In this document: piece by piece, positions 5,470 through 37,786 of the stretch
Layout of the letters: every line of letters starts with the position of its first letter
Numbering within the stretch: the stretch's first letter is position 1
Assembly (NCBI GenBank): GCA_965221955.1
Contig: CBDCTA010000002.1
Span: forward strand, 96,001 to 160,000
Reading direction: 5' to 3'
Source of the DNA: Gammaproteobacteria bacterium
GTDB lineage: Bacteria > Pseudomonadota > Gammaproteobacteria > UBA4575
DNA: 64,000 nucleotides
Position numbers and translations under genes: made by a program
The notes under the pieces: model-generated
Seen by the model: only the letters and a program-made list of their open reading frames with translations
What the model was told of the DNA's origin: nothing
Databases searched by the model: none

Positions 5470-5535
5470 ATCTTTTCTCCTCTCTTATTCTTATCGTATA
5501 GAATTATTTTTTAATTAATAATGTGTAAGCCTTAA

Positions 5536-5985
5536 TTAGGTTACGGTCCAATTATCATTGCGTCGTTTCCAACCTTCATTGAAGTGCTCGGGATATCCAT
5601 CTTCTTCATCCAATTCATCCAAGCGCATTAGGAAAATATCGTGTTGTGGATCTTGTTCATTGTCATATACTTTATCGTTGACAAATTCTGGAGGCACACC
5701 TCGAATTCCTGAAAGTCGTCCGATACGCCATTCTTTTTCAACCTTTGTGCAAATCACTACTAATTTTCCACCAAAATTACCTGGCATAGCTGCGCGCATG
5801 CGTATTAGCACTTTATTTAGCAAAGGATCATCTGTGAATCCGTCAGTAACAACAGTAGTATCTCCTGGAGTCTCGCATTTCATGATGGTGCAACCAGCCA
5901 CACCTTTCATAGATTCGATACACTCCTTGTGGGTTTTGATGAGTCTTTCGCGTTCAGGCGTCCCTTTTTTTGGTATTGATATCAT
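5536..5985 (-). CDS. dmfA1: N,N-dimethylformamidase small subunit family protein
   Basis: Directly upstream of dmfA2. GKLVVI...EWRIGRL...GVPPEF..D......QHDIFLMRL matches the small-subunit C-terminal pattern. GGAGG RBS present. Confidence 0.78.
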   Translation of the reverse strand: MISIPKKGTPERERLIKTHKECIESMKGVAGCTIMKCETPGDTTVVTDGFTDDPLLNKVLIRMRAAMPGNFGGKLVVICTKVEKEWRIGRLSGIRGVPPEFVNDKVYDNEQDPQHDIFLMRLDELDEEDGYPEHFNEGWKRRNDNWTVT

Positions 5986-20000: not shown

Positions 20001-20023
20001 AATAAGATTGTTAATAAATTCGA

Positions 20024-20311
20024 CTACTCAGTTTTTTTAAACGCAACTCTCTGCATATATAATTCATGTGCAGGATAGGTTTTAATAATTTCTTCGGTCA
20101 CTGTATTACGTTCAGCGATGAACCAATAAGATGTGGGAACATGCATCCACCATTCACGTACAACACCTTTAGTATTATTTTCCATGAACAAATATTCAGC
20201 CCATTCGCGATCTGTTCCATTAACTGGATCTGGTATTGATTTTACTTCTCCACCACAAATAAATTCGGAGATGTTACGTAAACCATTCAATGGACAGGGC
20301 ATTAATTTCAT
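20024..20311 (-). CDS. mgdB: N-methylglutamate dehydrogenase small subunit (SoxD-like)
   Basis: MKLMPCPLNGLRNISEF...EWWMH...ERNT. Confidence 0.85.
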   Translation of the reverse strand: MKLMPCPLNGLRNISEFICGGEVKSIPDPVNGTDREWAEYLFMENNTKGVVREWWMHVPTSYWFIAERNTVTEEIIKTYPAHELYMQRVAFKKTE

Positions 20312-20333
20312 CGTAATAGAATTTTTTTAAATA

Positions 20334-21575
20334 TTAATGACCAACAGAAGCAGCACCACGTTCACCTACTTGTTCGAAACGATAGAAGCGTTCTAATTCA
20401 AATGGCTTTAGCAAATCAGGAAGTTTGTCTGTAGCTAAAGTTTCTGCCATGCGCTTACCACATACGGGTGTAGCTTTAAATCCCCAGGTGCCCCATCCGG
20501 CATCAATATAGTAATTTTGTATTGGTGTGAAACCCATAACGGGACTAAAATCAGGAGTCATATCAGTAATACCTGCCCATTGTCGTAATATTTTCAATTT
20601 TCCAACAAATGGGAAAAGTTCCAATAGATGCATCATTAGCTCTTCTTTGAACTCCAAAGTAGAACGTGTGGAATAGAGAGAATAAGGGTCGCTAGAAGCG
20701 CCCATTACTAACTCGCCACGAGAAGATTGGGAAACATATACATGTAATGAACCAGAAACGACAATAATGTTTAAAAATGGTTTAACAGGTTCTGTAACAC
20801 ACGCTTGTAAGGGAATAGATTTTATAGGTAGTTTGAATCCAGCAAGTTTCGAAACTTCTGAACTTAAACCGGCTACTGCTTGTAATACTTTTCCACAACG
20901 AATATCACCACGATCTGTTTGAACACCAACAACGCGATCATTTTCAAACTTAAAACCTGTTACTTCCGTATGTGTATGAATTTCTATACCGCGATCTGAA
21001 GCACCGCGAGCATAACCCCATGCTACTGCATCATGTCTAGCGATAGCACCTGGAGGATGGTGCAATGCCCCCATGATTGGGTAACGTACATCTTGGCTTA
21101 AGTTTAAGTGTGGACATAGCTTTGCTAGTTCGTCTGGATAAACTAACTCAGAATTAATGCCAAGATGCTTGTTTACTTCTGCTCGCCAACGAGATGTACG
21201 TATTGCTGCATCAGTGTGTGCAAGTGTTAAATGACCTCTTTCAGAGTAGAGAATATTGTAATCAAGTTCATTGCTTAAATTTTGAAATAGTTTTACTGAT
21301 TCATCATAAAAACGTACACCTTCGGGTGTTAAATAATTTGATCGTACGATTGCTGTATTACGAGCAGTATTACCACCTGCAAGATAGCCTTTTTCTAATA
21401 CCGCAACATTAGTGATTCCCCATTGCTTAGCCAGGTAGTACGCGGTGGCTAGACCATGACCACCACCACCTATAATCACAATGTCATAACTAGGCTTAAG
21501 CGAGGCAGGTTTTTTGAAATGCCGTTCTGAAGGGTGGGCTTTACTTAAGCCATATTTTAATAGCCCAAAAGGCAT
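20334..21575 (-). CDS. mgdA: N-methylglutamate dehydrogenase FAD subunit (SoxB-like)
   Basis: GGGGHGLATAYYLA, GGNTARNT, GWGTWGFKATP, C-terminal GAASVGH. Confidence 0.9.
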   Translation of the reverse strand: MPFGLLKYGLSKAHPSERHFKKPASLKPSYDIVIIGGGGHGLATAYYLAKQWGITNVAVLEKGYLAGGNTARNTAIVRSNYLTPEGVRFYDESVKLFQNLSNELDYNILYSERGHLTLAHTDAAIRTSRWRAEVNKHLGINSELVYPDELAKLCPHLNLSQDVRYPIMGALHHPPGAIARHDAVAWGYARGASDRGIEIHTHTEVTGFKFENDRVVGVQTDRGDIRCGKVLQAVAGLSSEVSKLAGFKLPIKSIPLQACVTEPVKPFLNIIVVSGSLHVYVSQSSRGELVMGASSDPYSLYSTRSTLEFKEELMMHLLELFPFVGKLKILRQWAGITDMTPDFSPVMGFTPIQNYYIDAGWGTWGFKATPVCGKRMAETLATDKLPDLLKPFELERFYRFEQVGERGAASVGH

Positions 21576-21687
21576 TCTTAATTACAACTATAATTCTAAA
21601 ATATTCATTCTATAAATGTACTTACATAAAAAGAATTTTAAAAATATTGTGAAGTACATTTTAATATAATTGCTAATTACTATAGAT

Positions 21688-22995
21688 TTAACAGTCAAGA
21701 GTATTTTGTCTTTCCCACTGACTAAGATGGCTTGTGTATTCACGCCATTCCGTCATTTTCAATTTGATATAAGCATCGATAACTTCTTCACCAAGTTCTG
21801 CTCTAAGTATTTTATTTTTCTCTAACAGACGAAGCGCATCTAAAAGAGTAGAAGGAAGTAGTTTTGCAGACCGTACTTTATTGCCTTCTTCATACATATT
21901 TACGAAGCTTGGTTCGCCTGGGTCACGTTTATGGTTAATTCCATCGAGACCTGCTGCAATAATTGCTGCTTGAGCAAGATAAGGATTCATTGCGCCATCC
22001 ATTAAGCGTAATTCAAATCTGCCATCATCAGGTACGCGAATCATGTGAGTACGATTATTTCCCGAATAGGTAACTGCACTTGGTGACCAAGTTGCGCCAG
22101 AAGTTGTGCGTGGTGCATCTATTCTCTTATAACTATTAACTGTTGGATTAAATATTGCGCACATTGAAACAGCATGCTGCATAATACCGCCAAGAAATTG
22201 ATAAGCTATTTTAGATAAACCTAGCTCATCTGTTTTGCTTAAAAATAAATTTTTCTTACCTGTCTTATCCCAGATAGAAATATGGGAATGACATCCATTC
22301 CCAGTTAAATTTGAAAATGGCTTGGGCATAAACGTTGCGCGCATGCCATGATTTTCTGCAATAGTTTTTGTCATATATTTAAAAAATACATGACGATCTG
22401 CAGTGAGTAATACATCGTTATAATCCCAATTCATTTCAAACTGACCATTAGCATCTTCATGGTCATTTTGATAAGGACCCCAACCCAGTTTTAGCATGCA
22501 ATCGCAAATTTCTTTTACAACCGGATAGCGACGCATCAAAGCTTGTTGATCATAACAAGGCTTTGTTTGAGTATCGTATGGGTCTGATAATTCCGTACCA
22601 TCTTCATTTACTAAAAAGTACTCACATTCCACACCCGTTTTAACGCGATAGCCTTTTTTCTGAGCTTTGGCAATTTGTCTTTTAAGCGCTACTCGCGGTG
22701 ATGCTTCAACTTCTTTGCCATCCATCCAAAGATCTGATGCCAACCAACCAATTTCAGGATTCCAAGGTAATTGAATTAAGCTATCTGGATCAGGTACTCC
22801 GAACATATCTGAATCTGCAGGCGTCATATCAAGCCACGCTGCAAATCCTGCAAATCCTGCACCATCTTTTTGCATATCTTTAATTGCACGAGCTGGAACA
22901 AGTTTTGCTCGCAGTACACCAAAAAGATCTACAAAGCTTACAAGAAAATATTTGATGCCTTTTGTTTTTGCAATTTGAGCTAAATCTTTTGCCAT
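21688..22995 (-). CDS. gmaS: Gamma-glutamylmethylamide synthetase (glutamine synthetase-like)
   Basis: KYFLVSFVDLFGVLRAKLVP, GAGFAGFAAW, QNDHEDANGQFEMNW, SGATWSP; located between mgs and mgd genes. Confidence 0.9.
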   Translation of the reverse strand: MAKDLAQIAKTKGIKYFLVSFVDLFGVLRAKLVPARAIKDMQKDGAGFAGFAAWLDMTPADSDMFGVPDPDSLIQLPWNPEIGWLASDLWMDGKEVEASPRVALKRQIAKAQKKGYRVKTGVECEYFLVNEDGTELSDPYDTQTKPCYDQQALMRRYPVVKEICDCMLKLGWGPYQNDHEDANGQFEMNWDYNDVLLTADRHVFFKYMTKTIAENHGMRATFMPKPFSNLTGNGCHSHISIWDKTGKKNLFLSKTDELGLSKIAYQFLGGIMQHAVSMCAIFNPTVNSYKRIDAPRTTSGATWSPSAVTYSGNNRTHMIRVPDDGRFELRLMDGAMNPYLAQAAIIAAGLDGINHKRDPGEPSFVNMYEEGNKVRSAKLLPSTLLDALRLLEKNKILRAELGEEVIDAYIKLKMTEWREYTSHLSQWERQNTLDC

Positions 22996-23099
22996 GTTGA
23001 CTCTCCGTTATTTTGTTCTTATTTGCTTAGCGCTAAGTATGTTAGAGCTACTTGCATATGAAACACATTATTTTACTTGCATGCAATTATTCTACTATC

Positions 23100-24431
23100 T
23101 CATAAATTATTACTACCTGGAATCCAATTTGTGCCTGCTAGTGGCACTTTCGCCATGGCAGCTGACTCTAACGTTAAAGCGACCATGTCCTCAGGTTCTA
23201 AATTATGCACATGGCTTTTGCCACATGCCCGCGCAAGCGTTTGGGTTTCAAGAGTCAGCACACGCAAGTAATTGGCAAGCTTACGTCCACCTAGTATGGG
23301 GTCAAAACGTTGTGCAAGTTTTTCACTTTGTGTACTAATACCAGCAGGATCTTTTCCGTCTTGATAATCATCATAATATCCTGCGGATGTCCCAAGTTTG
23401 CGATACTCTTCTTCAAATTCAGGACTATTGTCACCCAAGGCTATTAGCGCAGCTACTCCAATCGAAACTGCATCGGCTCCTAATGCTAATGCTTTTGCTA
23501 CATCTGCTCCACTGCGTATACCACCTGAAACAATGAGTTGAACTTTACGGTGCATATTCATTTCCGTAAGCGCTTCGACCGCTAAACGCACGGCTGGTAA
23601 AATTGGGATACCAACATGTTCAATGAATACATCTTGGGTTGCTGCTGTTCCACCTTGCATGCCATCTACAACGATTGCATCTGCACCTGCTTTCACCGCC
23701 AACATAGTGTCGTAGTAAGTACGCGTTGCGCCTACTTTTATATATATAGGAACTTGCCAATCAGTTATTTCACGTAATTCTAAAATTTTAATTTCTAAAT
23801 CGTCAGGACCTGTCCAATCTGGATGTCGACAAGCACTGCGTTGATCAATTTCTTGAGGAAGGTCACGCATTTCTGCTACGCGTTTACTTATTTTTTGTCC
23901 AAGTAACATTCCACCACCGCCAGGTTTTGCACCTTGACCAATAACAACTTCAATTGCATCAGCCTTTCGAAGGTCATCAGGATTCATGCCATAACGGGAA
24001 GGGAGGAGTTGATAGACAAGTATAGAAGAGTGACCACGTTCTTCTTGTGTCATCCCGCCATCACCCGTTGTTGTACTTGTGCCTACTTCGCTTGCACCAC
24101 GTCCCAAAGCTTCTTTTGCAGGAGCAGATAAGGCTCCAAAGCTCATACCTGCTATTGTGATAGGAATCTTAAGCTCAATAGGTTTCTTAGCAAAACGGGT
24201 TCCAATCGTAACATTGGTATCACATTTTTCCCGATAACCTTCGAGCGGATATCGCGACATGCTCGCGCCTAAGAAAAGTAAATCATCAAACGATGGTACG
24301 TGACGCTTCGCACCATACCCACGTATGTCATATAAACCTGTTGCTGCCGCACGCTGAATTTCAGCAATAACATGCCTCGGAAAGGTCGCTGATTCTTTTA
24401 GCCATGTATTGAGATCTTCATTTTGTCCCAT
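23100..24431 (-). CDS. mgsC: N-methylglutamate synthase FMN-binding subunit C
   Basis: AGMSFGALS, TTTGDGG, GQGAKPGGGG, DGMQGGT. Probable start ATG 24431, because the longer ORF overlaps mgsB. Confidence 0.9.
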   Translation of the reverse strand: MGQNEDLNTWLKESATFPRHVIAEIQRAAATGLYDIRGYGAKRHVPSFDDLLFLGASMSRYPLEGYREKCDTNVTIGTRFAKKPIELKIPITIAGMSFGALSAPAKEALGRGASEVGTSTTTGDGGMTQEERGHSSILVYQLLPSRYGMNPDDLRKADAIEVVIGQGAKPGGGGMLLGQKISKRVAEMRDLPQEIDQRSACRHPDWTGPDDLEIKILELREITDWQVPIYIKVGATRTYYDTMLAVKAGADAIVVDGMQGGTAATQDVFIEHVGIPILPAVRLAVEALTEMNMHRKVQLIVSGGIRSGADVAKALALGADAVSIGVAALIALGDNSPEFEEEYRKLGTSAGYYDDYQDGKDPAGISTQSEKLAQRFDPILGGRKLANYLRVLTLETQTLARACGKSHVHNLEPEDMVALTLESAAMAKVPLAGTNWIPGSNNL

Positions 24432-24447
24432 AGCAAAACACCCTTGT

Positions 24448-25134
24448 TTAGTAGGCTCCGATATTATCAATATTAAAGTTATATAATTTTCTTGCAGAAC
24501 CATAGCGACGGAACTCTTCAGCATCGATATCTGAAAGATTTGCTTGTTTGAGTAGCTCCTTTAACTCAGCTTTATGCTCTGCTTTCATTGGTTTTTCGAT
24601 GCAGTCTGCACCAAGGCTTGAGACATTCCCTCGAACATATATTCGAGCTTCATAAAGGGAATCTCCAAGAGCATCACCAGCATTGCCGCACACAACTAAG
24701 CATCCTTTTTGTGCCATGAATGCGCTCATATGACCAACACTTCCTTTTACTACGATGTTTACACCTTTCATGGAGATTCCGCATCGTGAGCTTGCATCAC
24801 CTTCAATTACAAGTAGACCTCCATGCGCAGTAGCCCCTGCATATTGAGAAGCGTTGCCTTTAATTCTTACCATTCCTGACATCATGTTTTCGGCGACACC
24901 AGGACCGCAATGACCATTTACTACTATGTTTGCTTGCTTATTCATGCCAGCACAGTAATATCCAACATGTCCGTCAATTTGGATATCTAAACCTTCATCA
25001 ATGCCAACAGCAATGGCATGACGACCTTTAGTGTTGCTTACTTTCCATTTGCTTTGATTTTTAGCAATATCTGAATTATGTAAAGCTGCATTTAGCTCTC
25101 TTACATCAGACTGATCTAGATCAAATTCAATCAT
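24448..25134 (-). CDS. mgsB: N-methylglutamate synthase subunit B (GXGXG beta-helix)
   Basis: GHVGYYCAGMN, GVAENMMSG, RCGISMKG, GDSLYEA, YGSARKLYNF. Confidence 0.9.
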   Translation of the reverse strand: MIEFDLDQSDVRELNAALHNSDIAKNQSKWKVSNTKGRHAIAVGIDEGLDIQIDGHVGYYCAGMNKQANIVVNGHCGPGVAENMMSGMVRIKGNASQYAGATAHGGLLVIEGDASSRCGISMKGVNIVVKGSVGHMSAFMAQKGCLVVCGNAGDALGDSLYEARIYVRGNVSSLGADCIEKPMKAEHKAELKELLKQANLSDIDAEEFRRYGSARKLYNFNIDNIGAY

Positions 25135-25186
25135 GTTAGTTTATAAATTTTTAAATTTATTTTGCAGTGATACGTTCATTTGTTTG

Positions 25187-26083
25187 TTAATGCTTCCAGC
25201 TATAAATCTGTGCTGGAACAGGTTCCCAGCAATGCGCATCTTTCGCTCCTGGCAATACAGCAAGTGCACGATATTCTGATGCCATTGCAACCCAGTCATC
25301 TGTTTCAGCTATCACAGCTGGCTTACATGCGATAGGGTCGCGCATTACTGCAAAACCATCTTTAGTGCCTACTGCAAATGTATAAAACCCATCTAAGTCA
25401 TGAATGGCAGCTGCTAGCGCTTCGTCCAAATCATCACCTTGCTGTAAGCGAGATGCGATATAGCCTGCTGCTACTTCGCTGTCATTGTCGGTATGAAAAA
25501 TGATGCCTTTTTTACGTAATATTCTGCGCAAATGGTTATGATTTGATAGCGATCCGTTATGAACCAAACATAAGTCTTCGCCTGTAGAAAAAGGGTGCGA
25601 GTGATGCGTGGTAACGGCGCTTTCTGTAGCCATACGCGTATGACCAAGAGCATGCGTTCCTGTTAATTCTTGGATGTTAAATTTCTCAATAACACAAGAT
25701 GGTAGCCCCATTGCTTTATATATTTCTATTGAACTGCCTGAACTGATTAATTTAAGCTCAGGGTGATGTTGGTGTAACCAAGCTGTAATACCTTCTTCTG
25801 TACCAGGAACAATATAAGTTGCTTGATTGCTCCTAATTTCAAATCTTACTGGGCCATCATAATGTTGACTTAAATCGTTGGCGACATTTTTCCAGTTATA
25901 GTCCTGTGCAGGGGATAACACAGTTAATTTAGTGTGCTTTTCATCGGTTGGGGTTCTGTAAACTGCTATGCCCGCGCTATCTGGTCCACGTTCGGTCATT
26001 TCGATAAGCATCTGAGATAAATACATACCGAGATGAGATTCGATGTTTTCAGATTTTGAAAATAACCCAACAATTCCGCACAT
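25187..26083 (-). CDS. mgsA: N-methylglutamate synthase subunit A (class II amidotransferase)
   Basis: N-terminal MCGIVG; RGPDSAG, GHTRMATES, HNGSLSN, RDPIACKP. Confidence 0.9.
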   Translation of the reverse strand: MCGIVGLFSKSENIESHLGMYLSQMLIEMTERGPDSAGIAVYRTPTDEKHTKLTVLSPAQDYNWKNVANDLSQHYDGPVRFEIRSNQATYIVPGTEEGITAWLHQHHPELKLISSGSSIEIYKAMGLPSCVIEKFNIQELTGTHALGHTRMATESAVTTHHSHPFSTGEDLCLVHNGSLSNHNHLRRILRKKGIIFHTDNDSEVAAGYIASRLQQGDDLDEALAAAIHDLDGFYTFAVGTKDGFAVMRDPIACKPAVIAETDDWVAMASEYRALAVLPGAKDAHCWEPVPAQIYSWKH

Positions 26084-28266: not shown

Positions 28267-29124
28267 TCAATCTAGTGTTGCAGATTGCTTAGTGTATTTT
28301 CCGTAGCCTAAATGGACGATCGTAATTAACCAAGATACAAATACAAATGGTGCTGTTAAAGATGGCCATCCTGAAATAATAAAAGCTTGGGTAACAAAAA
28401 CAGTTAATACGATGCCAATTAATGGGAATATGATCGGTTTCATGTTTTGTAATGCGATAGCTGTTAACACGGCACTGAACCCATAGAGACCGTTTTGAAT
28501 ATTTACATCAGGATAGTTGAGGGCATGGGCCAATAACCAAGTTAGTGTTGTTGCAACTAGGGCCCAAACGAAGCTTGACTTTGAACAAAGTAAAATAGCG
28601 AATAACATTATTGCGCCGGTAATTCCGTTTCCCTGTATATATACCTGACCTACTGCTTCCCCCAGACCCGCAGTATGGATGTTATCGGCAAAATTAAGGA
28701 TATCATTTGCCGGTGTTAGTTTAATAAAATCTCCAATGAGAATTATAAACCAAGTAATAAAAACAAATGGTGCAGTAAACGCTGGGAGTTTTAAATACTT
28801 TGGAATCCATTTGGTAACAAAAATAGATAATACACAGCTCAAGATAAAAACAATGACAGAGGCAATTGCAGTTTGAAAAAAATAAATATTTGCGATACCT
28901 ATTAATGTAGCGTTATAACCAAAGATTCCTAAAGTAATTTCCTTACCGTCAAATTTGAGAAATTTTGCGGTCGCGGTGCCAATGGCTGCACCGAAAAAAG
29001 CTCCTAGCGCCATTTTCCACGAATGAACAGCGATGCTCGCCAAAATAATCAAACCAGATAAAGAACATGGTTGAACAATTACTTGCGCGATGCCAGACAT
29101 CGTATGTTTAAAAAAATTAATCAC
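28267..29124 (-). CDS. Urea transporter (UT/Yut family) channel
   Basis: GIAQV, GxxGYNATL, and duplicated PxxTAPFV signature (LPAFTAPFV, WPSLTAPFV); about 10 TMs. Confidence 0.85.
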   Translation of the reverse strand: MINFFKHTMSGIAQVIVQPCSLSGLIILASIAVHSWKMALGAFFGAAIGTATAKFLKFDGKEITLGIFGYNATLIGIANIYFFQTAIASVIVFILSCVLSIFVTKWIPKYLKLPAFTAPFVFITWFIILIGDFIKLTPANDILNFADNIHTAGLGEAVGQVYIQGNGITGAIMLFAILLCSKSSFVWALVATTLTWLLAHALNYPDVNIQNGLYGFSAVLTAIALQNMKPIIFPLIGIVLTVFVTQAFIISGWPSLTAPFVFVSWLITIVHLGYGKYTKQSATLD

Positions 29125-29292: not shown

Positions 29293-30450
29293 ATGATTAA
29301 GTCTTCATGGAAAGTGGGTGTATTATTTTCTAAAACAGGTGTTACATCTGTAATAGAAAAAACTCAATTAAATGCTACTTTACTCGCGATTCGAGAAATC
29401 AATACTCGTGGTGGCGTGAATGGCAGGTGTATTGAACCGATTGTTTACGATCCAGAATCTAATCCGGAAAAGTTTCGACAACTTGCTAAGCGTTTAATTA
29501 CAAAAGACTCCGCCAACATCATCTTTGGATGTTACATGTCAAGTGCTCGCAAAGCTGTTATTCCTATCGTAGAAGATTATGAAGGATTGTTATGGTACCC
29601 AACGTTATATGAAGGATTTGAATATTCGAAAAACGTCATTTACACCGGTGCGACACCAAATCAAAATAGTATGTTCTTAGCGCGCTATTTACTCAGTCAA
29701 TATGGCAATCGTTTTTATTTTGTCGGTTCAAATTATATTTATCCATATGAATCAAATCGAATTATGAAGGATATTTTGCAATCTACGGGAGGAAAGGTAG
29801 TTGCAGAAAAATATCTACCATTGAATGCAAGCGTTGAAGATATTGATCCCATTTTAGTAGATATTCTCGAAAAACGTCCGAATGTTATTTTTAGTACCAT
29901 AGTTGGAGCCGCGACTAGTAAGTTCTATAAAAGTTATTGGAGAGCAGGTTTGCAACCTAGGCAAATGCCTATAGCAAGCCTTACCACAAGTGAGGCAGAA
30001 GTTAGTGCCATGGGCTCTGAGGTAGGCGCTGGTCATATAACTGCGGCACCTTATTTTGAAACTGTAAATACAGCTACCAATCAACAATTTGTAAGCAGTT
30101 ATAAATCCATGTTTGGTGCATCAGAATGCACTAACGCTTGCGCCGAGGCAGCTTATTTCCAGGTTAATCTTTTTGCAGAAGTATTACGTCGTGTAGGTAC
30201 CTTGGATACGGACATTGTTCGTACTGCGACACTTGGAACTATTTTTGATGCGCCTGAAGGCACGATACAAATAGATCCTGACAATCATCATACATATTTA
30301 TGGCCTAAAATTGGTCGTGTTGATGGTGATGGTAAATTTCAAATCGTTGCGGAAACAGATGGCCCGGTAAAGCCTGATCCTTACCTAGTTGATCTTGGTT
30401 CGGATAAAAATCTAAACCGTATGCAGTACTTTGAAAGCGAGCTTCGTTAG
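29293..30450 (+). CDS. amiC: Cytoplasmic amide sensor/negative regulator AmiC
   Basis: VGVLFSKTGVT, FGCYMSSARKAV, YPTLYEGFEYS, GATPNQNS, YPYESN; no signal peptide; 2 bp from amiR. Confidence 0.9.
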   Translation: MIKSSWKVGVLFSKTGVTSVIEKTQLNATLLAIREINTRGGVNGRCIEPIVYDPESNPEKFRQLAKRLITKDSANIIFGCYMSSARKAVIPIVEDYEGLLWYPTLYEGFEYSKNVIYTGATPNQNSMFLARYLLSQYGNRFYFVGSNYIYPYESNRIMKDILQSTGGKVVAEKYLPLNASVEDIDPILVDILEKRPNVIFSTIVGAATSKFYKSYWRAGLQPRQMPIASLTTSEAEVSAMGSEVGAGHITAAPYFETVNTATNQQFVSSYKSMFGASECTNACAEAAYFQVNLFAEVLRRVGTLDTDIVRTATLGTIFDAPEGTIQIDPDNHHTYLWPKIGRVDGDGKFQIVAETDGPVKPDPYLVDLGSDKNLNRMQYFESELR

Positions 30451-30452
30451 TT

Positions 30453-31055
30453 ATGGCCATTGAAATATTAAAAGATCTACGTAAATTACGTGTGCTTGTA
30501 GTGCATCCTAATGATGAGCAAGGCAGTGATATATGTCAGCACATTGAACGAATTGGCTGCAAGGTGCGAATGGTATGGCCATGTCCAAAAGACATTAATC
30601 CCGATACCGATGTAGTTCTTTTGCAATCTTTACATGAGCATCCGTTTACTGAAAAACCATTATGGTTAACTGAAGAAAAAAACAGCCCTACCATAATTGC
30701 GATTGTTGACTATGAAAATCCAACCGTACTGCAAACCGTATATGAATTGGGAGCCCACGGAATTATCAATAAGCCTGTACGTCCATTTGGTTTATTAGCA
30801 AACTTAGTTATTGCAAGAACTCGTTGGCGTAAAGAGTTGGCGTTGAATTCCAGAGTGGAAAAACTTGAAACAAAATTAAGAAAGATACATGCAGTCGAAC
30901 ATGCGGTCGCAATACTTGAGCGAGCCAATGATATTAGTCATGAACAAGCCTATGAGTTTATTAGAAGTAGAGCGATGGAGCGCCGTCTAACTACTGAAGA
31001 TATTGCTCAAGAAATAGTTGCTGCGGATAAAATCTTAGAGGTCAATGTTAAATAA
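30453..31055 (+). CDS. amiR: ANTAR antitermination regulator AmiR
   Basis: Pseudo-receiver (RIGC, VDYENPT) plus ANTAR domain (AxxIL......EQAYEFIRSRAMERR). Confidence 0.9.
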   Translation: MAIEILKDLRKLRVLVVHPNDEQGSDICQHIERIGCKVRMVWPCPKDINPDTDVVLLQSLHEHPFTEKPLWLTEEKNSPTIIAIVDYENPTVLQTVYELGAHGIINKPVRPFGLLANLVIARTRWRKELALNSRVEKLETKLRKIHAVEHAVAILERANDISHEQAYEFIRSRAMERRLTTEDIAQEIVAADKILEVNVK

Positions 31056-31176
31056 TACCTGTAATTTCAGGTTGTTATAAGAGTGCAAATACTATACAGG
31101 AGAATGACTTCTTGACGTATTCAATAAATTAGTCTAAAAAGTTATGTAACACATAGCATTCTAGCTAGGTAGAGTT

Positions 31177-31259
31177 TAGCAGAACCAATAATGCTTCTGT
31201 TATAAATGAGAATGGGCAAAAAAGCCCTCACGGATTTATATGTCCGTGAGGGCTTTTTT
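31177..31259 (+). promoter_or_regulatory. ANTAR-type dual-hairpin leader with overlapping intrinsic terminator upstream of amiE
   Basis: P1 tagcagaa-c-C-aataat-G-c-ttctgtta (31177-31202). P2 gggc-aaaaaa-gccc (31214-31227) overlaps the 5' arm of terminator gccctcacgga/tccgtgagggc+T6 (31224-31259). Confidence 0.8.
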
Positions 31260-31394
31260 GTGCGTGTGACAAAAACAATTATTAGTAGTTGACCGAAAAC
31301 CAAACTAGTTTGAAGTTATATTTTTTGTTCATAAAAAAATGTCGTTTTATGTCTGATCTTAAAAAAAGATATGAAGTGACGAGGAGGATAAAAT

Positions 31395-32429
31395 ATGTAT
31401 CACGGTGATATATCAAGTAGTAAAGATGCAGTAGGCGTTGCAGTAGTAAATTACAAAATGCCTCGGATGCATACTAAAGCAGAAGTTCTCGATAATGCAC
31501 GCAATATTGCGGAAATGATCGAGGGTATGAAAGTTGGATTACCTGGAATGGATCTCGTCATATTTCCTGAGTACAGTACTCATGGAATTATGTATGACGA
31601 GACAGAGATGTATGAAACTGCATCCAGTTGTCCAGGTGAAGAAACTGAAATTTTTGCAGAGGCGTGCCGCAATGCAAAAGTATGGGGTGTGTTTTCACTC
31701 ACAGGAGAGCGTCATGAGGAACACCCAAATAAAGCTCCCTATAACACATTAATTTTGATGAATGATCAGGGTGAAATTGTACAAAAGTATCGAAAGATTA
31801 TGCCTTGGGTGCCTATTGAAGGTTGGTATCCTGGAAATTGCACTTACGTTTCAGAAGGGCCAAAAGGGTTAAAGATAAGTTTAATCATTTGTGATGATGG
31901 AAACTATCCAGAAATTTGGCGAGATTGCGCAATGAAAGGTGCTGAACTTATCGTACGTTGTCAAGGATATATGTATCCGTCAAAAGATCAGCAGATCATG
32001 GTTGCAAAAGCAATGGCTTGGATGAATAACTGCTATGTAGCGGTTGCAAACGCAACAGGTTTTGATGGCGTTTATTCATACTTTGGATACTCATCCATCA
32101 TTGGATTTGATGGACGAACATTGGGCGCCTGTGCAGAAGAGGATATGGGTGTTCAATATGCCAATCTTTCCACATCACTTATACGTGATGCGCGTAAGAA
32201 TCAACAATCCCAAAATCATTTGTTCAAACTTCTACATCGCGGTTACACTGGTCTCATTAATTCAGGTGATGGTGATAAAGGCGTTGCAGAATGTCCTTAT
32301 GACTTCTATAAGAAGTGGGTCACTGATCCTGATGCAGCACGTGAAATGGTCGAATCCATTACCAGAACCACGGTTGGAACAGATGAATGTGAAATCGAGG
32401 GAATTCCTAACCCTAAAACACATCGTTAA
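31395..32429 (+). CDS. amiE: Aliphatic amidase AmiE (nitrilase superfamily)
   Basis: [46 protein letters not shown] (Glu-Lys-Cys triad); GAGGAGG RBS. Confidence 0.95.
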
Positions 32430-32445
32430 TTCTGTTGTTGAAAAA

Positions 32446-32481
32446 AAGGCGAAGACATTTTTTTGTCTTCGCCTTACTTTT
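32446..32481 (+). terminator. Stem-loop/terminator after amiE
   Basis: aaggcgaagaca-tttttt-tgtcttcgcctt followed by an interrupted T-tract (actttt). Confidence 0.65.
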
Positions 32482-32533
32482 CTGTAGATTAAGGTTACAC
32501 TTTTATATTGCTAGCATTTAAATCTTTAAGAAA

Positions 32534-33331
32534 ATGAATCTTGATAGTTATTTAATTTCCCAAGAGCCTTATTACTCTCCAACTCATAACGAGATTCAAT
32601 TGTTTGAAGCAGCGTATGCGAACCGTATGCCGATGATGTTGAAAGGTCCCACTGGTTGTGGCAAAACTCGTTTTGTAGAATACATGGCTTGGATATTAAA
32701 AAAGCCATTGATCACCGTATCGTGTCATGAAGATATGACGGCGTCTGATCTTGTAGGCCGTTATCTTCTCGATGCGGAAGGAACGGTTTGGCATGATGGT
32801 CCTTTAACTTTGGCCGTGCGACATGGCGCAATTTGTTACTTAGATGAAATTGTTGAAGCCAGGCAAGATACCAGTGTGGTTATTCACTCATTAACAGATG
32901 ATCGACGAATACTTTCGTTAGAAAAGAAAAATGAAGTTGTAAAAGCTAATAAAGATTTCCAAATCGTCATTTCTTATAATCCAGGCTATCAAAGTGTATT
33001 AAAAGATTTAAAAGAATCGACTAAACAACGTTTTGGTGCTATTGATTTTGATTATCCAAAACCAGAAGATGAAGCTGAGATCATTGCACATGAGTCAGGT
33101 ATCGATAAAAAAATTGCTAAAAAGCTTGTGCAAATTTCAGAACGTTCTCGAAATTTAAAAGGACATGGTTTAGATGAGGGGGCGTCCACGCGTATGTTAA
33201 TTTATGCTGCTCAATTAATGACACAAGGTGTTTCTTTAGAAGAAGCTTGCGAAGTTGCATTAGTATTACCCATTACGGATGATCATGATATTCGCAATGC
33301 GCTAAGTTCGGCCATAGCGGCCTGTGCGTGA
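32534..33331 (+). CDS. CbbQ/NirQ/NorQ-type MoxR AAA+ ATPase
   Basis: [69 protein letters not shown]. Confidence 0.93.
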
Positions 33332-33336
33332 GGATT

Positions 33337-33495
33337 AGGACCTCTGATCTATTCGTGAACTCGTACCTACTGCCTAAAATATCCAGTTTCTGCGTTGCAA
33401 ACTTTCGCAATAGCTTGCTATTACGTGCGCTTCACGCCTTGAATCTGGACATTTTCGTTCACCACCTACTTCGCCCAGAATAAATCGGAGGTCCT
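33337..33495. mobile_element. 159-bp MITE-like element with 18-bp terminal inverted repeats
   Basis: Left aggacctctgatctattc (33337-33354); right gaataaatcggaggtcct (33478-33495), 16/18 complementary. Internal palindromes aaaatatccag...ctggacatttt and aatagc-tt-gctatt. No clear target duplication. Confidence 0.65.
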
Positions 33496-35807
33496 TGATT
33501 TTGGTTGCGTCCACGACGCGAGGTAAGTATGCGGTCTCACTGCAAAGTCAAGAGCCTGGTGATCCCGATGAAAGATTAGTTTATCTGATTGAGAAGGGGA
33601 AGAATCTTTTTCCTAACCAATACCAAGCTTTTTGGGAAAGTGCTTGTAACAAACTTGCACAGGCAGGATATGGAGCATTAATACCACTTTCTTACGCACG
33701 TCATTCACCTAAACTCGTCAAGCTAATTGATTCTGAGGCTGCAATAAATTTAGCTGCTTCAGTTTCTCTTGCTGCTATTAAAGTAAATCGTGCAACAGCA
33801 GAATTGCTGTCAAAAGCTGCCGTGGTTGCAGCGAGTGAGTTGAAATCTTCGCAAGCATTTACTTCATGGGTTAGTACGATAGAAGAATTGATTCATCATG
33901 CACCTGAGTCTTCGCTTGCAGTTTTAGAGCGTACACAAAAAATTGTTTCTACATTAACTCCCGATCAATTTAGGTCATGGGTGTTAGCGGGGTTGCGTTC
34001 AACAGGAGATGATGCTTTACGTCAAATTCAATATTTTTCGTTTACAGATCCAGAATCTGAAAAGTGGTTTCGACATGAAGCAGGTGATGTAGTTTTTACT
34101 GATCTTGACCGCCGTTTAAAACTTTATTTAATTTCTCTTTGGAATCTACGACCACCTATTCGTGACCTACCTGCGTCTACCTCTCCGCTATCATTAAGAC
34201 GAATATCAATTAGTAATGGAGTCGTGCAAGTTCCTGAAGTATTTCCAGGATTTCATGATGAACAAGCGGAGAATATTTTTCGTGCCGGACTCGCGCATGT
34301 CGGTGCACATTTAGTGTATTCAACAAAGAAATTTCCTTTAGGAGAGCTTAAACCAATACAAGTAGCATTGGTTTCTTTAATAGAAGACGCTCGAGTGGAA
34401 TATCTCGCTATGCAAGCTTTTCCTGGATTGCAAAAACTTTGGCAGCCGTTTCATATTGCAAAATCAAGTGGACCAAAATTAGTGCCGTTATTGTTGGCTA
34501 GACTCTCGCGGGCATTGATTGATGCAGAATATAGCGATAAAGATGGTTGGGTGCAAAAAGGTAAAGATATGTTTTTTGATGCAAAAAACGATATGACAGA
34601 TCCCGCAATGTGTCGAAGAATTGGAGTACTTTTAGGAAATGATTTAGGGCAATTACGTGCTCAATTTAATGCAAAAACTTATGTAGTAGAGCCAGCCTAT
34701 CGAGATGACAATATGGGTTTATGGGATTTTGGAGATCATCAAGGTAATGAAGAGGATAGCGATGGTATGTTTATTGAAGCCATGCGCATGGATCAACAAG
34801 AACAACAAGATGAGACATCAAATGATAATCAAGATCAACAACAAGATAATGAAGAAGATGAGCAACAATATCATGCAAGAGAAAGTTTAGATTCTGAGCA
34901 TCGGGAATCTGAAGTTGCTGTTCGTTATCCAGAATATGACTACTTAACAGGTTCCGAACGACCTAGTTGGACCTGTGTTGTGGAATATTTTGCTGATTTT
35001 GGGGATGCCTACAAAATAGATCGAATCTTAGAAAAACATAACAATCTGGTAAATAGAATTACAAATTTAATTCAAACTGCAAAAGTGAGCTTACCCGAAA
35101 GATTGCATCATCAAAGTGTAGGAGAATCATTAGATTTAGATGCTTGTATCAACGCAGTGATTAGTAGAAGGATGGGAGAAACCCCTGATCCTCGTATATA
35201 CAGTACCACTGAGCGTAAACACCGAGATCTGTCCGTATTGGTACTATTGGACATCTCAAATTCCACTAATGACAAAGTAAAAACAGCTGATACATCTGTT
35301 TTAGAACTTGAAATTCAAGCAACAAGTTTGTTGGCTTATGCAATGTCTGAGCTTGACGATCCTTTTGCAATTGCAGCTTTTTGTTCTGATGGTAAAGAAG
35401 ACGTTCATTACTACCGAGTTAAGAATTTTGATTCTCCTTACGATTCGTCTGCCCGTGCGTATTTAGCAGGATTACATGGCAAATTATCGACCAGAATGGG
35501 TGCAGCAATGAGGCATGCCACTAAAGACTTGATTGCACAACGCACACATAGACGATTATTGTTGGTGATTTCAGATGGTGAACCATCAGATATTGATGTA
35601 GAAGATCAACAATATTTAGTTGAGGATGCTCGTAAAGTAGTGCGTTCTATTTCGCGTTTAGGAATAGACACTTTTTGTGTTGGATTAGATGGAAGTGGAG
35701 ATAGTTATTTACACAAAATTTTTGGCAGAAAAAATGTAGTTATTATTGATAAACTAGACCGGTTGCCAGAAAAGTTACCCATGTTATATCTCCGCTTAAC
35801 AGCGTAA
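33495..35807 (+). CDS. CbbO/NorD-type von Willebrand factor A adaptor protein (start uncertain)
   Basis: IEDARVE, YRDDN, acidic linker, YPEYDY, MIDAS LLDISNST, STRMGAAMRH, ISDGEPSDID, C-terminal LPEKLPMLYLRLT. Confidence 0.9.
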   Translation: MILVASTTRGKYAVSLQSQEPGDPDERLVYLIEKGKNLFPNQYQAFWESACNKLAQAGYGALIPLSYARHSPKLVKLIDSEAAINLAASVSLAAIKVNRATAELLSKAAVVAASELKSSQAFTSWVSTIEELIHHAPESSLAVLERTQKIVSTLTPDQFRSWVLAGLRSTGDDALRQIQYFSFTDPESEKWFRHEAGDVVFTDLDRRLKLYLISLWNLRPPIRDLPASTSPLSLRRISISNGVVQVPEVFPGFHDEQAENIFRAGLAHVGAHLVYSTKKFPLGELKPIQVALVSLIEDARVEYLAMQAFPGLQKLWQPFHIAKSSGPKLVPLLLARLSRALIDAEYSDKDGWVQKGKDMFFDAKNDMTDPAMCRRIGVLLGNDLGQLRAQFNAKTYVVEPAYRDDNMGLWDFGDHQGNEEDSDGMFIEAMRMDQQEQQDETSNDNQDQQQDNEEDEQQYHARESLDSEHRESEVAVRYPEYDYLTGSERPSWTCVVEYFADFGDAYKIDRILEKHNNLVNRITNLIQTAKVSLPERLHHQSVGESLDLDACINAVISRRMGETPDPRIYSTTERKHRDLSVLVLLDISNSTNDKVKTADTSVLELEIQATSLLAYAMSELDDPFAIAAFCSDGKEDVHYYRVKNFDSPYDSSARAYLAGLHGKLSTRMGAAMRHATKDLIAQRTHRRLLLVISDGEPSDIDVEDQQYLVEDARKVVRSISRLGIDTFCVGLDGSGDSYLHKIFGRKNVVIIDKLDRLPEKLPMLYLRLTA

Positions 35808-35848
35808 AATAAGTAAAAAACTATAAGTTTTATATGGAGTGATAAAAA

Positions 35849-37786
35849 ATGTCAGACAATAAAATCTATCCAGTTCCAAGCTCCGTAGCCTCTACTGCCC
35901 ATATAGATAAAGATGCCTATGAATCTATGTATCAAGAGTCGATACAGGATCCAGAAGGATTTTGGGCCAAACAAGCTGATGAGTTTGTAAGCTGGTATAA
36001 AAAATGGGACAACGTTTTAGATTGGGATTATCACAAAGCACACATACGCTGGTTTGAAGGCGCGAGTTTAAATGTTTCTTATAATTGTATTGATCGACAT
36101 TTAGAAACACGTGCTGACCAGACTGCGATTATTTGGGAAGGTGATGACCCAAATGACGATAAACATATTACATATAAACAGCTTCACAAAGAAGTTTGCA
36201 AATTTGCAAACGTTTTAAAAAACCGCGGAGTTAAAAAAGGCGATCGAGTATGCATCTATATGCCGATGATACCCGAAGCTGCATATGCCATGTTGGCCTG
36301 TACCCGCATCGGTGCTGTACATTCCGTTGTGTTTGGTGGTTTTTCTCCTGATTCCTTACGTGATCGAATTTTAGATTCAGATTGTCGTACAGTCATTACG
36401 GCAGATGAAGGTGTTCGTGGTGGCAAAAAAGTACCTCTCAAAGCCAATACGGATAAAGCTTTAGAAGAGTGTCCAAACGTAAGTACTGTCTTGGTAATCA
36501 AACGTACAGGAGGAGATATCGATTGGCATGAGTCGCGTGACTATTGGTACTACGATGAAATGAATAGCGCGAGTGTTGATTGCGAACCTGAAAGAATGGA
36601 TGCCGAAGATCCAATGTTTATTCTCTATACCTCAGGTTCGACAGGCAAACCTAAGGGTGTATTGCACACAACCGGTGGATATCTTTTATATGCTGCGATA
36701 ACGCATAAATATGTGTTTGATTATCAAGATGGTGAGGTCTATTGGTGCACAGCAGATGTTGGTTGGGTAACAGGACATACTTATATATTGTATGGACCAT
36801 TGTGTAATGGTGCGATCACCATGATGTTTGAAGGCGTGCCTAACTATCCAGATGGTAGTCGTTTTTGGCAAGTATGTGATAAGCACAATGTTGCGAGTTT
36901 TTATACTGCTCCGACTGCAATCCGTGCATTAATGAGTTTAGGTAACGAAGCAGTTAAAAAAACCAGTCGTAAAAGTTTACGTTTATTAGGAACGGTAGGA
37001 GAGCCCATTAACCCAGAAGCATGGGAGTGGTATTACCATGTAGTTGGTGATTCACGTTGTCCAATAGTTGATACATGGTGGCAAACAGAAACAGGTGGAC
37101 ATTTAATTACACCATTGCCGGGTGCAACTGACTTGAAACCCGGCTCTGCAAGTAAACCGTTTTTTGGAATACAGCCTGCAATTGTTGACGAGAACGGAAA
37201 GGAATTAGAAGGAGAGTGTCAAGGAAACTTGGTCATGAAATACCCATGGCCAGGGCAAATGCGTTCTGTGTATGGCGATCATCAACGTTTTATTGATACC
37301 TATTTTTCGCAGTATCCTGGCATGTATTTTAGCGGTGATGGTTGTAAGAGAGACGCAGATGGTTACTACTGGATAACTGGACGAGTTGATGACGTGTTAA
37401 ATATTTCAGGTCATCGCTTAGGTACTGCAGAAGTAGAGAGTGCATTAGTGTTACACGAAAAAGTAGCTGAAGCGGCTGTAGTGGGATATCCACACGACAT
37501 CAAAGGTCAAGGAATTTATGCTTACGTAACACTTATGGCAGGCGTAGAAAGTTCAGATGATCTAAAAGAAGAACTCGTGCAATTAGTGCGTAAAGAAATT
37601 GGAGCATTTGCAAAACCAGATATTATTCAATGGGCACCAGGCTTGCCTAAAACCCGTTCTGGAAAAATTATGCGCAGAATTTTACGTAAAGTTGCAGAGA
37701 ATGAAATTGATAATTTGGGTGATACCTCAACGCTTGCAGATCCGTCTGTTGTAGACGATATTATTGCTAATCGCGCGAATGCGTAA
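35849..37786 (+). CDS. acs: Acetyl-CoA synthetase
   Basis: [43 protein letters not shown]. Confidence 0.96.

Follow-up and report, generated by a model that had tools for sequence, protein, structure and literature searches.

We analysed a 64,000-nt stretch of DNA from a Gammaproteobacteria bacterium (UBA4575; assembly GCA_965221955.1, contig CBDCTA010000002.1, positions 96,001 to 160,000 of the forward strand), referred to below as the window, in which amiE, the gene for an aliphatic amidase, is followed by two genes, here termed Q and O, for a CbbQ-type MoxR AAA+ ATPase and a CbbO-type adaptor carrying a domain of the von Willebrand factor A (vWA) type. We attribute to Q and O the role of a CbbQO-type AAA+/vWA remodelling complex whose client would be the AmiE encoded upstream, and put the probability of this reading at roughly 0.6. 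An earlier note on this DNA had proposed that such a module fills the amiB slot of the Pseudomonas amidase operon and serves AmiE. Sequence comparisons support the proposal through the linkage of the genes, a lineage of their own for Q and O, a tag at the C-terminus of AmiE and the lack of another client; from these we infer that the complex forms, that it binds AmiE and that its purpose is repair.

Lineage and linkage of the amiE-associated Q and O genes

Q (265 aa) consists of an AAA_5 domain followed by CbbQ_C and has intact Walker A (GPTGCGKT, residues 38-45) and Walker B (YLDE, residues 102-105) motifs. It matched the solved CsoCbbQ (PDB 5c3c) with an E value of 8.1e-123, versus 2e-92 for NorQ, and was 66-72% identical to Rubisco-linked CbbQ; by analogy with these proteins it is predicted to form a hexamer with ATPase activity. 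The gene for O lies directly downstream of that for Q, and the TTG start codon kept in its relatives is at 33501. The protein is laid out as an N-domain, then an acidic linker and, at the C-terminus, a vWA domain bearing a MIDAS (an adhesion site that depends on a metal ion). The MIDAS, whose DISNS motif occupies residues 586-590, is complete (D586, S588, S590, T666 and D694), its residues being kept in 32-34 of the 34 amidase-type O proteins, depending on the residue. The earlier note had quoted these three motifs and had described amiE, the CbbQ-type ATPase, the vWA protein and the acetate-CoA ligase gene acs as lying on the same strand; both statements held in all checked details, positions included.

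To place the two proteins among their relatives, one genome per species was scanned for Q, which gave 555 relatives; of their loci the 80 best were retained and classed by tblastn with the window proteins and with a Rubisco large subunit from one locus; the neighbour lists of high-GC loci come from a crude caller of open reading frames (ORFs) and are approximate. Among these best 80, amiE was found within 10 kb of Q in 34 loci and Rubisco in another 34, neither was present in 9, and 3 were cut at a contig end. All trees were quick searches with support from the SH-like approximate likelihood-ratio test (SH-aLRT) only, and every support value quoted here belongs to a starred branch. In the Q tree (82 rows) a branch with a support of 100 split 40 rows from 42. 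The 40-row side held the 34 amiE-linked sequences together with three others, one cut locus, the window Q and a second Q of the same genome; the 42-row side held the 34 Rubisco-linked sequences, six others and two cut loci. The O tree, with 62 rows no shorter than 600 aa, likewise separated an amiE clade of 28 rows (support 98) from a Rubisco clade of 33 rows (support 99).

The trees were then extended by the Q and O proteins of an independent amiE-centred sample and by paralogues encoded beside a CcoN-like (NorB-type) gene, using LG+G4 without a mixture model; the long rows L114, L099, L101, L104, L123 and L128 (L numbers designate individual loci) were not securely placed. In the extended Q tree the amidase and Rubisco groups formed a clade of 94 rows (support 97) with NorQ outside it. 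This clade comprised a main amiE clade of 43 rows (support 97), a Rubisco clade of 47 rows (support 95) and four deeper amiE-linked rows. The NorQ sequences, four Q proteins encoded beside a NorB-type gene, made up their own clade (support 98), as did their O partners (support 99). In the extended O tree the Rubisco clade (support 100) did not include the window O, and NorD grouped with an uncharacterised class, apart from both the amidase and the Rubisco groups. Window Q and O thus fall outside the clades of Rubisco-linked Q and O. On the evidence of these sequence trees, the amiE-linked Q and O are a lineage of their own beside the Rubisco activases CbbQ and CbbO and apart from NorQ and NorD. 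The amiE-linked clade envisaged in the earlier note therefore exists and, in the trees of both proteins, is not nested in Rubisco or Nor clades.

In 24 of the 34 amiE-linked loci amiE was directly upstream of Q and in the same orientation, 44-341 nt away, and in the remaining 10 it was 2.3-7.7 kb from Q. These loci come from metagenome-assembled genomes (MAGs) of Thiotrichales and from Pelagibius, Azospirillum, Mesorhizobium, Reyranella, Stappia, Pannonibacter, Bradyrhizobium, Ancylobacter, Rhodopseudomonas, Arenicellales and Acetobacteraceae, with two more in MAGs labelled Verrucomicrobia and Anaerolineaceae. A conjugative plasmid of Agrobacterium (CP129670.1) encodes, between flanking transposases, an amidase with the end AHR, followed by a CbbQ/NirQ/NorQ/GpvN family protein and a VWA domain-containing protein; the amiE-Q-O triad travels as a unit. 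The adjacency has also been reported before, in a plasmid ami operon: Pseudomonas veronii plasmid pYu-LOS15-16 carries amiE-amiC-amiR together with a CbbQ-like and a NorD-like gene, for which a role in 'assembly/activation' was guessed (Microorganisms 2026, PMC13209695). The parts of that paper considered here give a domain annotation only and hold no phylogeny, survey, client tag or experiment on both genes. A separate lineage, a tag, and the parallels with O-only and AmiB-linked loci described below were not found in print in a literature search that left subscription journals largely outside.

AmiE is rare, being encoded in 12 of 400 genomes in an even sample of the class and in 24 of 401 in one of the phylum, the own genome included. 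A survey centred on amiE used 33 distinct loci, other than the own one, from even species samples. Directly downstream of amiE we found Q and O in 8 loci, an O-like vWA gene alone in 3, a Clp-like AmiB gene in 10 and none of these in 12. Conserved adjacency to amiE, as claimed at the outset, is thus seen from both sides, among the best Q relatives and behind sampled amiE genes. The AmiB-type product combines AAA_2 with ClpB_D2-small, resembles the second half of ClpB and has no vWA partner, in agreement with the earlier note, which had described the gene after amiE in the other operon type as Clp-like. For the AmiB-type genes of these loci, an assignment to the MoxR proteins was considered and ruled out on the same grounds. 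About two thirds of the sampled amiE genes therefore precede an AAA+ remodeller or its adaptor, and two unrelated clades are represented among the remodellers. We read this as convergent recruitment of AAA+ machines to amiE, which argues that AmiE itself is their object. In the three O-only loci (L099, L101, L104) the O-like vWA gene encodes 595-626 aa and there is no Q nearby; each of these genomes encodes three Q paralogues elsewhere, from which the adaptor may borrow its motor.

AmiB of Pseudomonas aeruginosa, in the operon amiEBCRS, resembles the present pair in being encoded by an AAA+ gene right after amiE, behind an internal terminator and in an AmiC/AmiR-controlled operon, and a chaperone role has been hypothesised for it (review PMC12591593). 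It differs in belonging to a Clp-like clade, in having no vWA partner and in the end of the linked AmiE, E-K-x-A(G), a comparison made through AmiB-type genes and not the PAO1 sequence.

Several further Q and O genes were encountered. The second Q of the genome is located at about 155.9 kb of C29 (L003, 9865-10677, minus strand) next to aprBA; C5 (L006, 10232-12523, minus strand) encodes, next to a DnaJ-domain gene, a second vWA protein that is O-like and has 763 aa. The two are unlinked to each other and group with uncharacterised Q/O pairs (L140-L144) that are neither Rubisco-, Nor- nor amiE-linked. Loci L052, L060 and L065 have Q and O inside the Rubisco-type clade with no Rubisco within 10 kb and no neighbour ending in His-Lys (HK) or His-Arg (HR); their client may be a Rubisco with genes at another site, or a different protein. 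Within the amiE-linked group, L049, L050 and L057 form a Bradyrhizobium/Ancylobacter-type subclade with ureD, ureC, ureF and ureE and with amiE in the opposite orientation.

The C-terminus of AmiE and the search for other clients

AmiE sequences were aligned in 66 rows, comprising the window, 40 others with Q and O, 3 with O only, 10 linked to AmiB and 12 without a partner; matches of less than 320 residues or less than 65% identity were excluded, and partial genes at contig ends (L030, L071) were dropped. Only three columns separated the Q/O-linked AmiE from the rest: those of the final two residues of the protein and that of V139, which was not common to the O-only group. The alignment offered no Q/O-specific acidic residue as a candidate for binding to the MIDAS. 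A His-Arg end was present in 41 of 41 AmiE encoded beside Q and O, preceded by a linker that varies in length and sequence, and all three AmiE encoded beside O alone ended in HR or HK. Such an end was seen in only 1 of the 22 AmiE from loci with neither gene (0 of 10 AmiB-linked, 1 of 12 partner-less). The partner-less proteins ended in SNY and other sequences. AmiB-linked AmiE, in turn, shared the E-K-x-A(G) end (L103, L105, L107, L109, L117, L121, L122, L124, L126 and L132); AmiB, too, may act on the C-terminus of AmiE, and this would be a starting point for explaining the amiB gene. In a tree of AmiE built without the tail columns (65 rows; the N-terminally truncated L018 was dropped), the partner state changed 8 times and the tail state 7 times.

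The same two residues are known from Rubisco. In the surveyed loci, 37 of the 38 Rubisco large subunits encoded beside CbbQO, of form I and form II, ended in HK or HR. Tsai et al. (2015, PMC4660213) describe the HK/R motif as specific to cbbQO-linked Rubiscos. Removal of one or two residues from the Rubisco tail, or the addition of one alanine, abolished activation and the stimulation of ATPase activity (PMC4660213; review PMC5437159), and the penultimate histidine was identified as the critical residue (PMC4660213). In the genome analysed here HR or HK ends are found in 7 of 2339 crude ORFs, AmiE among them.

A possible counterpart on the adaptor is a set of residues in the O N-domain, H268, H272, E297, D298, R300, E302 and Y402-R-D-D405. 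Depending on the residue, this signature was kept in 33-34 of 34 amidase-type and in 27-31 of 31 Rubisco-type O proteins, and it was not present in the four NorD sequences compared. Its sharing between the two groups suggests that it might form the pocket for the C-terminal tag. Two further residues, Q386 and R388, were invariant in the amidase type only. A structure prediction of two AmiE with O residues 470-770 and Mg gave a score of 0.13 against a mark of 0.32, was run without controls and carries no weight either way.

The usual clients of such machines appear to be missing. RuBisCO_large had no match in the whole genome, which is 96.64% complete, and no NorB-like protein was found among its four heme-copper oxidase genes; two of these are aa3-type, one is cbb3-type and one is divergent, the last matching oxidases over solved NO reductases. 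The absence of Rubisco and NO reductase, reported by the earlier note for the window, can thus be extended to the genome as far as these two clients are concerned (CO dehydrogenase was not searched for). Across the 22 loci with neither amiE nor Rubisco, the search for other HK/HR-tagged clients gave four short or unconvincing ORFs only.

Proposed mechanism and competing explanations

The arrangement closely parallels the CbbQO Rubisco activases (Acidithiobacillus ferrooxidans Q1O1/Q2O2; Halothiobacillus CsoCbbQ; PDB 5c3c, 6l1q): an AAA_5+CbbQ_C motor of about 265 aa is followed by a vWA/MIDAS adaptor of about 770 aa, the two genes come right after the one for the client, whose C-terminus is His-Lys/Arg, and the O N-domain signature is common to both systems. 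It differs from them in its proposed client AmiE, which belongs to the nitrilase superfamily and is a Cys-Glu-Lys hydrolase without a metal, in the lack of Rubisco in the genome, in the separate lineage of Q and O and in the residues Q386 and R388 of O. NorQ and NorD, which insert iron into cytochrome c nitric oxide reductase (PDB 9qh4, 9qhd), are likewise a MoxR AAA+ protein and a vWA/MIDAS partner, and O aligns to NorD over the finger, the vWA domain and the C-terminus (9qhd_G, E 2.3e-40, residues 463-768). By this homology, the published NorQD contacts, finger-in-pore and C-terminus to post-sensor-1, probably apply to the Q-O interface. The match is nevertheless more distant, the clade is separate and NorD does not have the N-domain signature; in the window there is no adjacent norCB and no metal to insert.

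On the analogy of the CbbQO and NorQD structures, a Q hexamer would carry one O adaptor, docked by the vWA finger and the C-terminus. The contacts of O with the AmiE hexamer would be made by the MIDAS and by a pocket that recognises the free His-Arg at the C-terminus, and ATP hydrolysis, by an ATP-driven twisting, would loosen AmiE. This would reopen active sites that are blocked, whether a ligand is tightly bound or covalently trapped in them or the catalytic cysteine is damaged, so that the complex would act as an 'amidase activase'. With the terminator-like hairpin behind amiE, Q and O would stay sub-stoichiometric, as fits a catalytic repair factor. Judged by the Rubisco systems, the reopening of blocked AmiE active sites is the most likely purpose. 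Older enzymology of Pseudomonas amidase has reported slow inactivation by urea and related compounds.

A more far-reaching proposal, to which we give somewhat less than even odds, is that the activase principle of CbbQO extends beyond Rubisco. Repair of a metal-free cysteine hydrolase would be the task of a sister lineage, by way of the same His-Lys/Arg tag, read in a pocket made by the shared signature of the O N-domain. Aliphatic amidases would then undergo dead-end inhibition in vivo, badly enough for bacteria to have recruited two unrelated AAA+ machines, Q/O of the MoxR type and AmiB of the Clp type, with a separate AmiE tail read by each, and the two-residue tag would be a portable address for other enzymes. 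To our knowledge, hardly any enzyme but Rubisco is known to have an ATP-driven activase that reopens its blocked active sites. If the reading is correct, the activase principle is general and can be seen on a simple, well-behaved and structurally solved amidase, which would make an easier model for the cooperation of motor, adaptor, MIDAS and tag, an open question in CbbQO. It would also reveal an unrecognised weakness of the nitrilase-superfamily amidases, which are industrial biocatalysts, and offer the amiB slot of the classic Pseudomonas operon, which has long lacked an explanation, its first role open to experiment. The prediction concerns the last two residues of AmiE; it is sharp, and testing it would cost little.

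A number of observations weigh against the assignment. The 12 of 33 sampled amiE loci with no adjacent partner imply that AmiE does not generally need one, and the AmiE of one of them, L108, ends in HR nonetheless. Locus L029 falls in the amiE-type clade and has full flanks, with no amiE within 10 kb, and in L049, L050 and L057 the urease cluster separates Q and O from amiE. The association of tag and partner comprises few independent events: four contrasts lie on starred branches of the AmiE tree, of which three to four point in the same direction and none in the opposite one, and the corresponding sign test (p about 0.125) stays below significance. In the window itself the 159-nt hairpin insert between Q and O may disturb their coupled expression and uncouple their translation. 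AmiE from P. aeruginosa and Geobacillus is active when made in Escherichia coli, and deletion of amiB reportedly gave no obvious phenotype. AmiE contains no metal, and we know of no dead-end complex that it forms in vivo. The repair purpose in particular leans on analogy and on the slow inactivation by urea-type compounds mentioned above.

Among the alternatives, Q and O might be an assembly or maturation chaperone that helps new AmiE to reach its hexameric active form, as NorQD does with NO reductase, which we consider unlikely. NorD, the nearest solved vWA partner, is a maturation factor (PMC13036017), 'assembly/activation' was the role suggested in the 2026 paper on the adjacency (PMC13209695), and the amiE linkage and the tag evidence fit a chaperone equally well. 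AmiE, however, needs no metal cofactor, and the AmiE of the partner-less loci are 73-84% identical to that of the window. We favour reactivation over assembly because the nearest relatives of Q and O, with which both proteins group to the exclusion of NorQD, are repair factors that use the same tag on the mature, inhibited enzyme, and because so many near-identical AmiE live without a partner.

Rather less probable is that Q and O are a negative regulator which reads the tag in order to dismantle AmiE hexamers, or to pass them to a protease, upon a change in amide or ammonia. C-terminal tags are often unfoldase or degradation signals, and the alternative partner AmiB is Clp-like, with a common tail on the AmiE linked to it. 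Against this, Q and O are co-transcribed and co-induced with the very enzyme they would destroy, the known activities of CbbQO and NorQD are activating, and CbbQ pore-loop mutants were reported to be still functional, which argues against threading (PMC4660213).

We see little chance that the client is another neighbour, such as urease, Acs, an amide transporter or dimethylformamidase (DMFase), and that amiE is merely frequent in nitrogen-scavenging islands. Such a client would fit the urease genes found between Q-O and amiE in three loci, the position of acs after O and the presence of a DMFase large subunit in the window (3070-5469, minus strand; 6lvb, E 4.6e-152). Only amiE, however, is consistently adjacent; acs follows O just in L007, L008 and L102, neither Acs nor DMFase is among the HR/HK-ended ORFs of the genome, and no candidate with such an end was seen in loci without amiE. 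DMFase, which the earlier note had named as an alternative client, was rejected in view of its distance of 26 kb, its location on the other strand, its lack of a His-Lys/Arg end and its occurrence in 0 of 91 related loci. That Q and O are a leftover Rubisco or NO-reductase accessory, retained after loss of the client and with no function tied to AmiE, is hardly credible despite the high identity of Q to Rubisco-linked CbbQ, as both genes are intact with all motifs present and trees and synteny contradict it, with a separate lineage kept beside amiE across many families and on plasmids.

Operon layout, regulatory hairpins and neighbouring genes

The genes amiC, amiR, amiE, Q, O and acs follow one another on the plus strand from 29293 to 37786, and a divergent gene for a UT-family channel lies upstream (Table 1). 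With amiC and amiR directly upstream of amiE, this is a complete AmiC/AmiR-controlled amidase operon. AmiE exceeds the cut-off of the NCBIfam aliphatic amidase model NF009802 (427 bits) by a wide margin, its PDB match is 2plq (E 1.8e-194), and it is near the solved Geobacillus and Pseudomonas enzymes. Acs takes up the acetate produced by AmiE; the attachment of its gene to the operon is limited to this lineage.

Table 1. Coordinates of the operon features within the window
Feature	Position	Strand	Evidence
UT-family (urea-transporter type) channel gene	28267..29124	-	Pfam UT 8.3e-55; 82% identical copy, same position, in L008
amiC, cytoplasmic amide sensor/negative regulator	29293..30450	+	Pfam Peripla_BP_5 1.2e-145; score below UrtA cut-off
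amiR, ANTAR antiterminator	30453..31055	+	Pfam AmiR_N 2.5e-39, ANTAR 9.6e-11
Leader terminator hairpin before amiE	31217..31262	+	GGGC...GCCC stem, then T run
amiE, aliphatic amidase (Glu59, Lys134, Cys166), end ...PKT-His-Arg	31395..32429	+	NF009802, 713.8 bits
Terminator-like hairpin, 12-bp stem, between amiE and Q	32446..32475	+	
Q, CbbQ-type MoxR AAA+ ATPase, 265 aa	32534..33331	+	AAA_5 7.6e-34, CbbQ_C 3.5e-33
Window-specific insert, about 159 nt, Q stop to O start	33336..33494	+	Long hairpin fold
O, CbbO-type adaptor, 770 aa	33495..35807	+	C-terminal VWA domain 1.3e-07
acs, acetate-CoA ligase	35849..37786	+	NF001208, 1109 bits

The operon shares amiC, amiR and a leader terminator before amiE with the Pseudomonas type, from which it differs in the position of amiC-amiR upstream of amiE, in having Q and O in the AmiB slot and in a UT channel instead of AmiS/UreI. 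The gene for this channel adjoins amiC, where the Pseudomonas operon has a channel of the AmiS/UreI type, and the protein may be a non-homologous replacement of AmiS for amide uptake.

Both L102, which is from the same genus, and L008 have kept the leader hairpin upstream of amiE, with changes in both arms of the stem; this hairpin is likely the target of AmiR. Together with its T run and with an AmiR that carries AmiR_N and ANTAR domains, it gives the classic antitermination layout, as in the Pseudomonas ami operon (review PMC12591593). The hairpin between amiE and Q was kept in L102, L007 and L008 and showed paired changes (GCGAAG/CTTCGC to GTGAAG/CTTCAC); it likely lowers the expression of Q and O relative to AmiE.

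In L102, L007 and L008 the stop codon of Q and the start of O are spaced by 8-12 nt, and the 159-nt insert at 33336-33494 has no counterpart in any of the three; it is found in the window alone. It has inverted ends (GGACCTC/GAGGTCC) and a fold z-score of -4.83, is present as a single copy in the genome and may be a miniature mobile element. No Rfam family reached its gathering score in a search of the whole window, so that neither the leader nor the insert matches a curated RNA family.

Elsewhere in the window, the minus strand carries, at 3070-5985 and 17094-26083, the DMFase large subunit, a possible small subunit and genes resembling the N-methylglutamate pathway. The latter encode a type III glutamine-synthetase-like protein, glutamate-synthase-like pieces and sarcosine-oxidase-like subunits. 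The ami operon, the DMFase genes and the N-methylglutamate-like genes make up an island for the catabolism of amides and methylamines.

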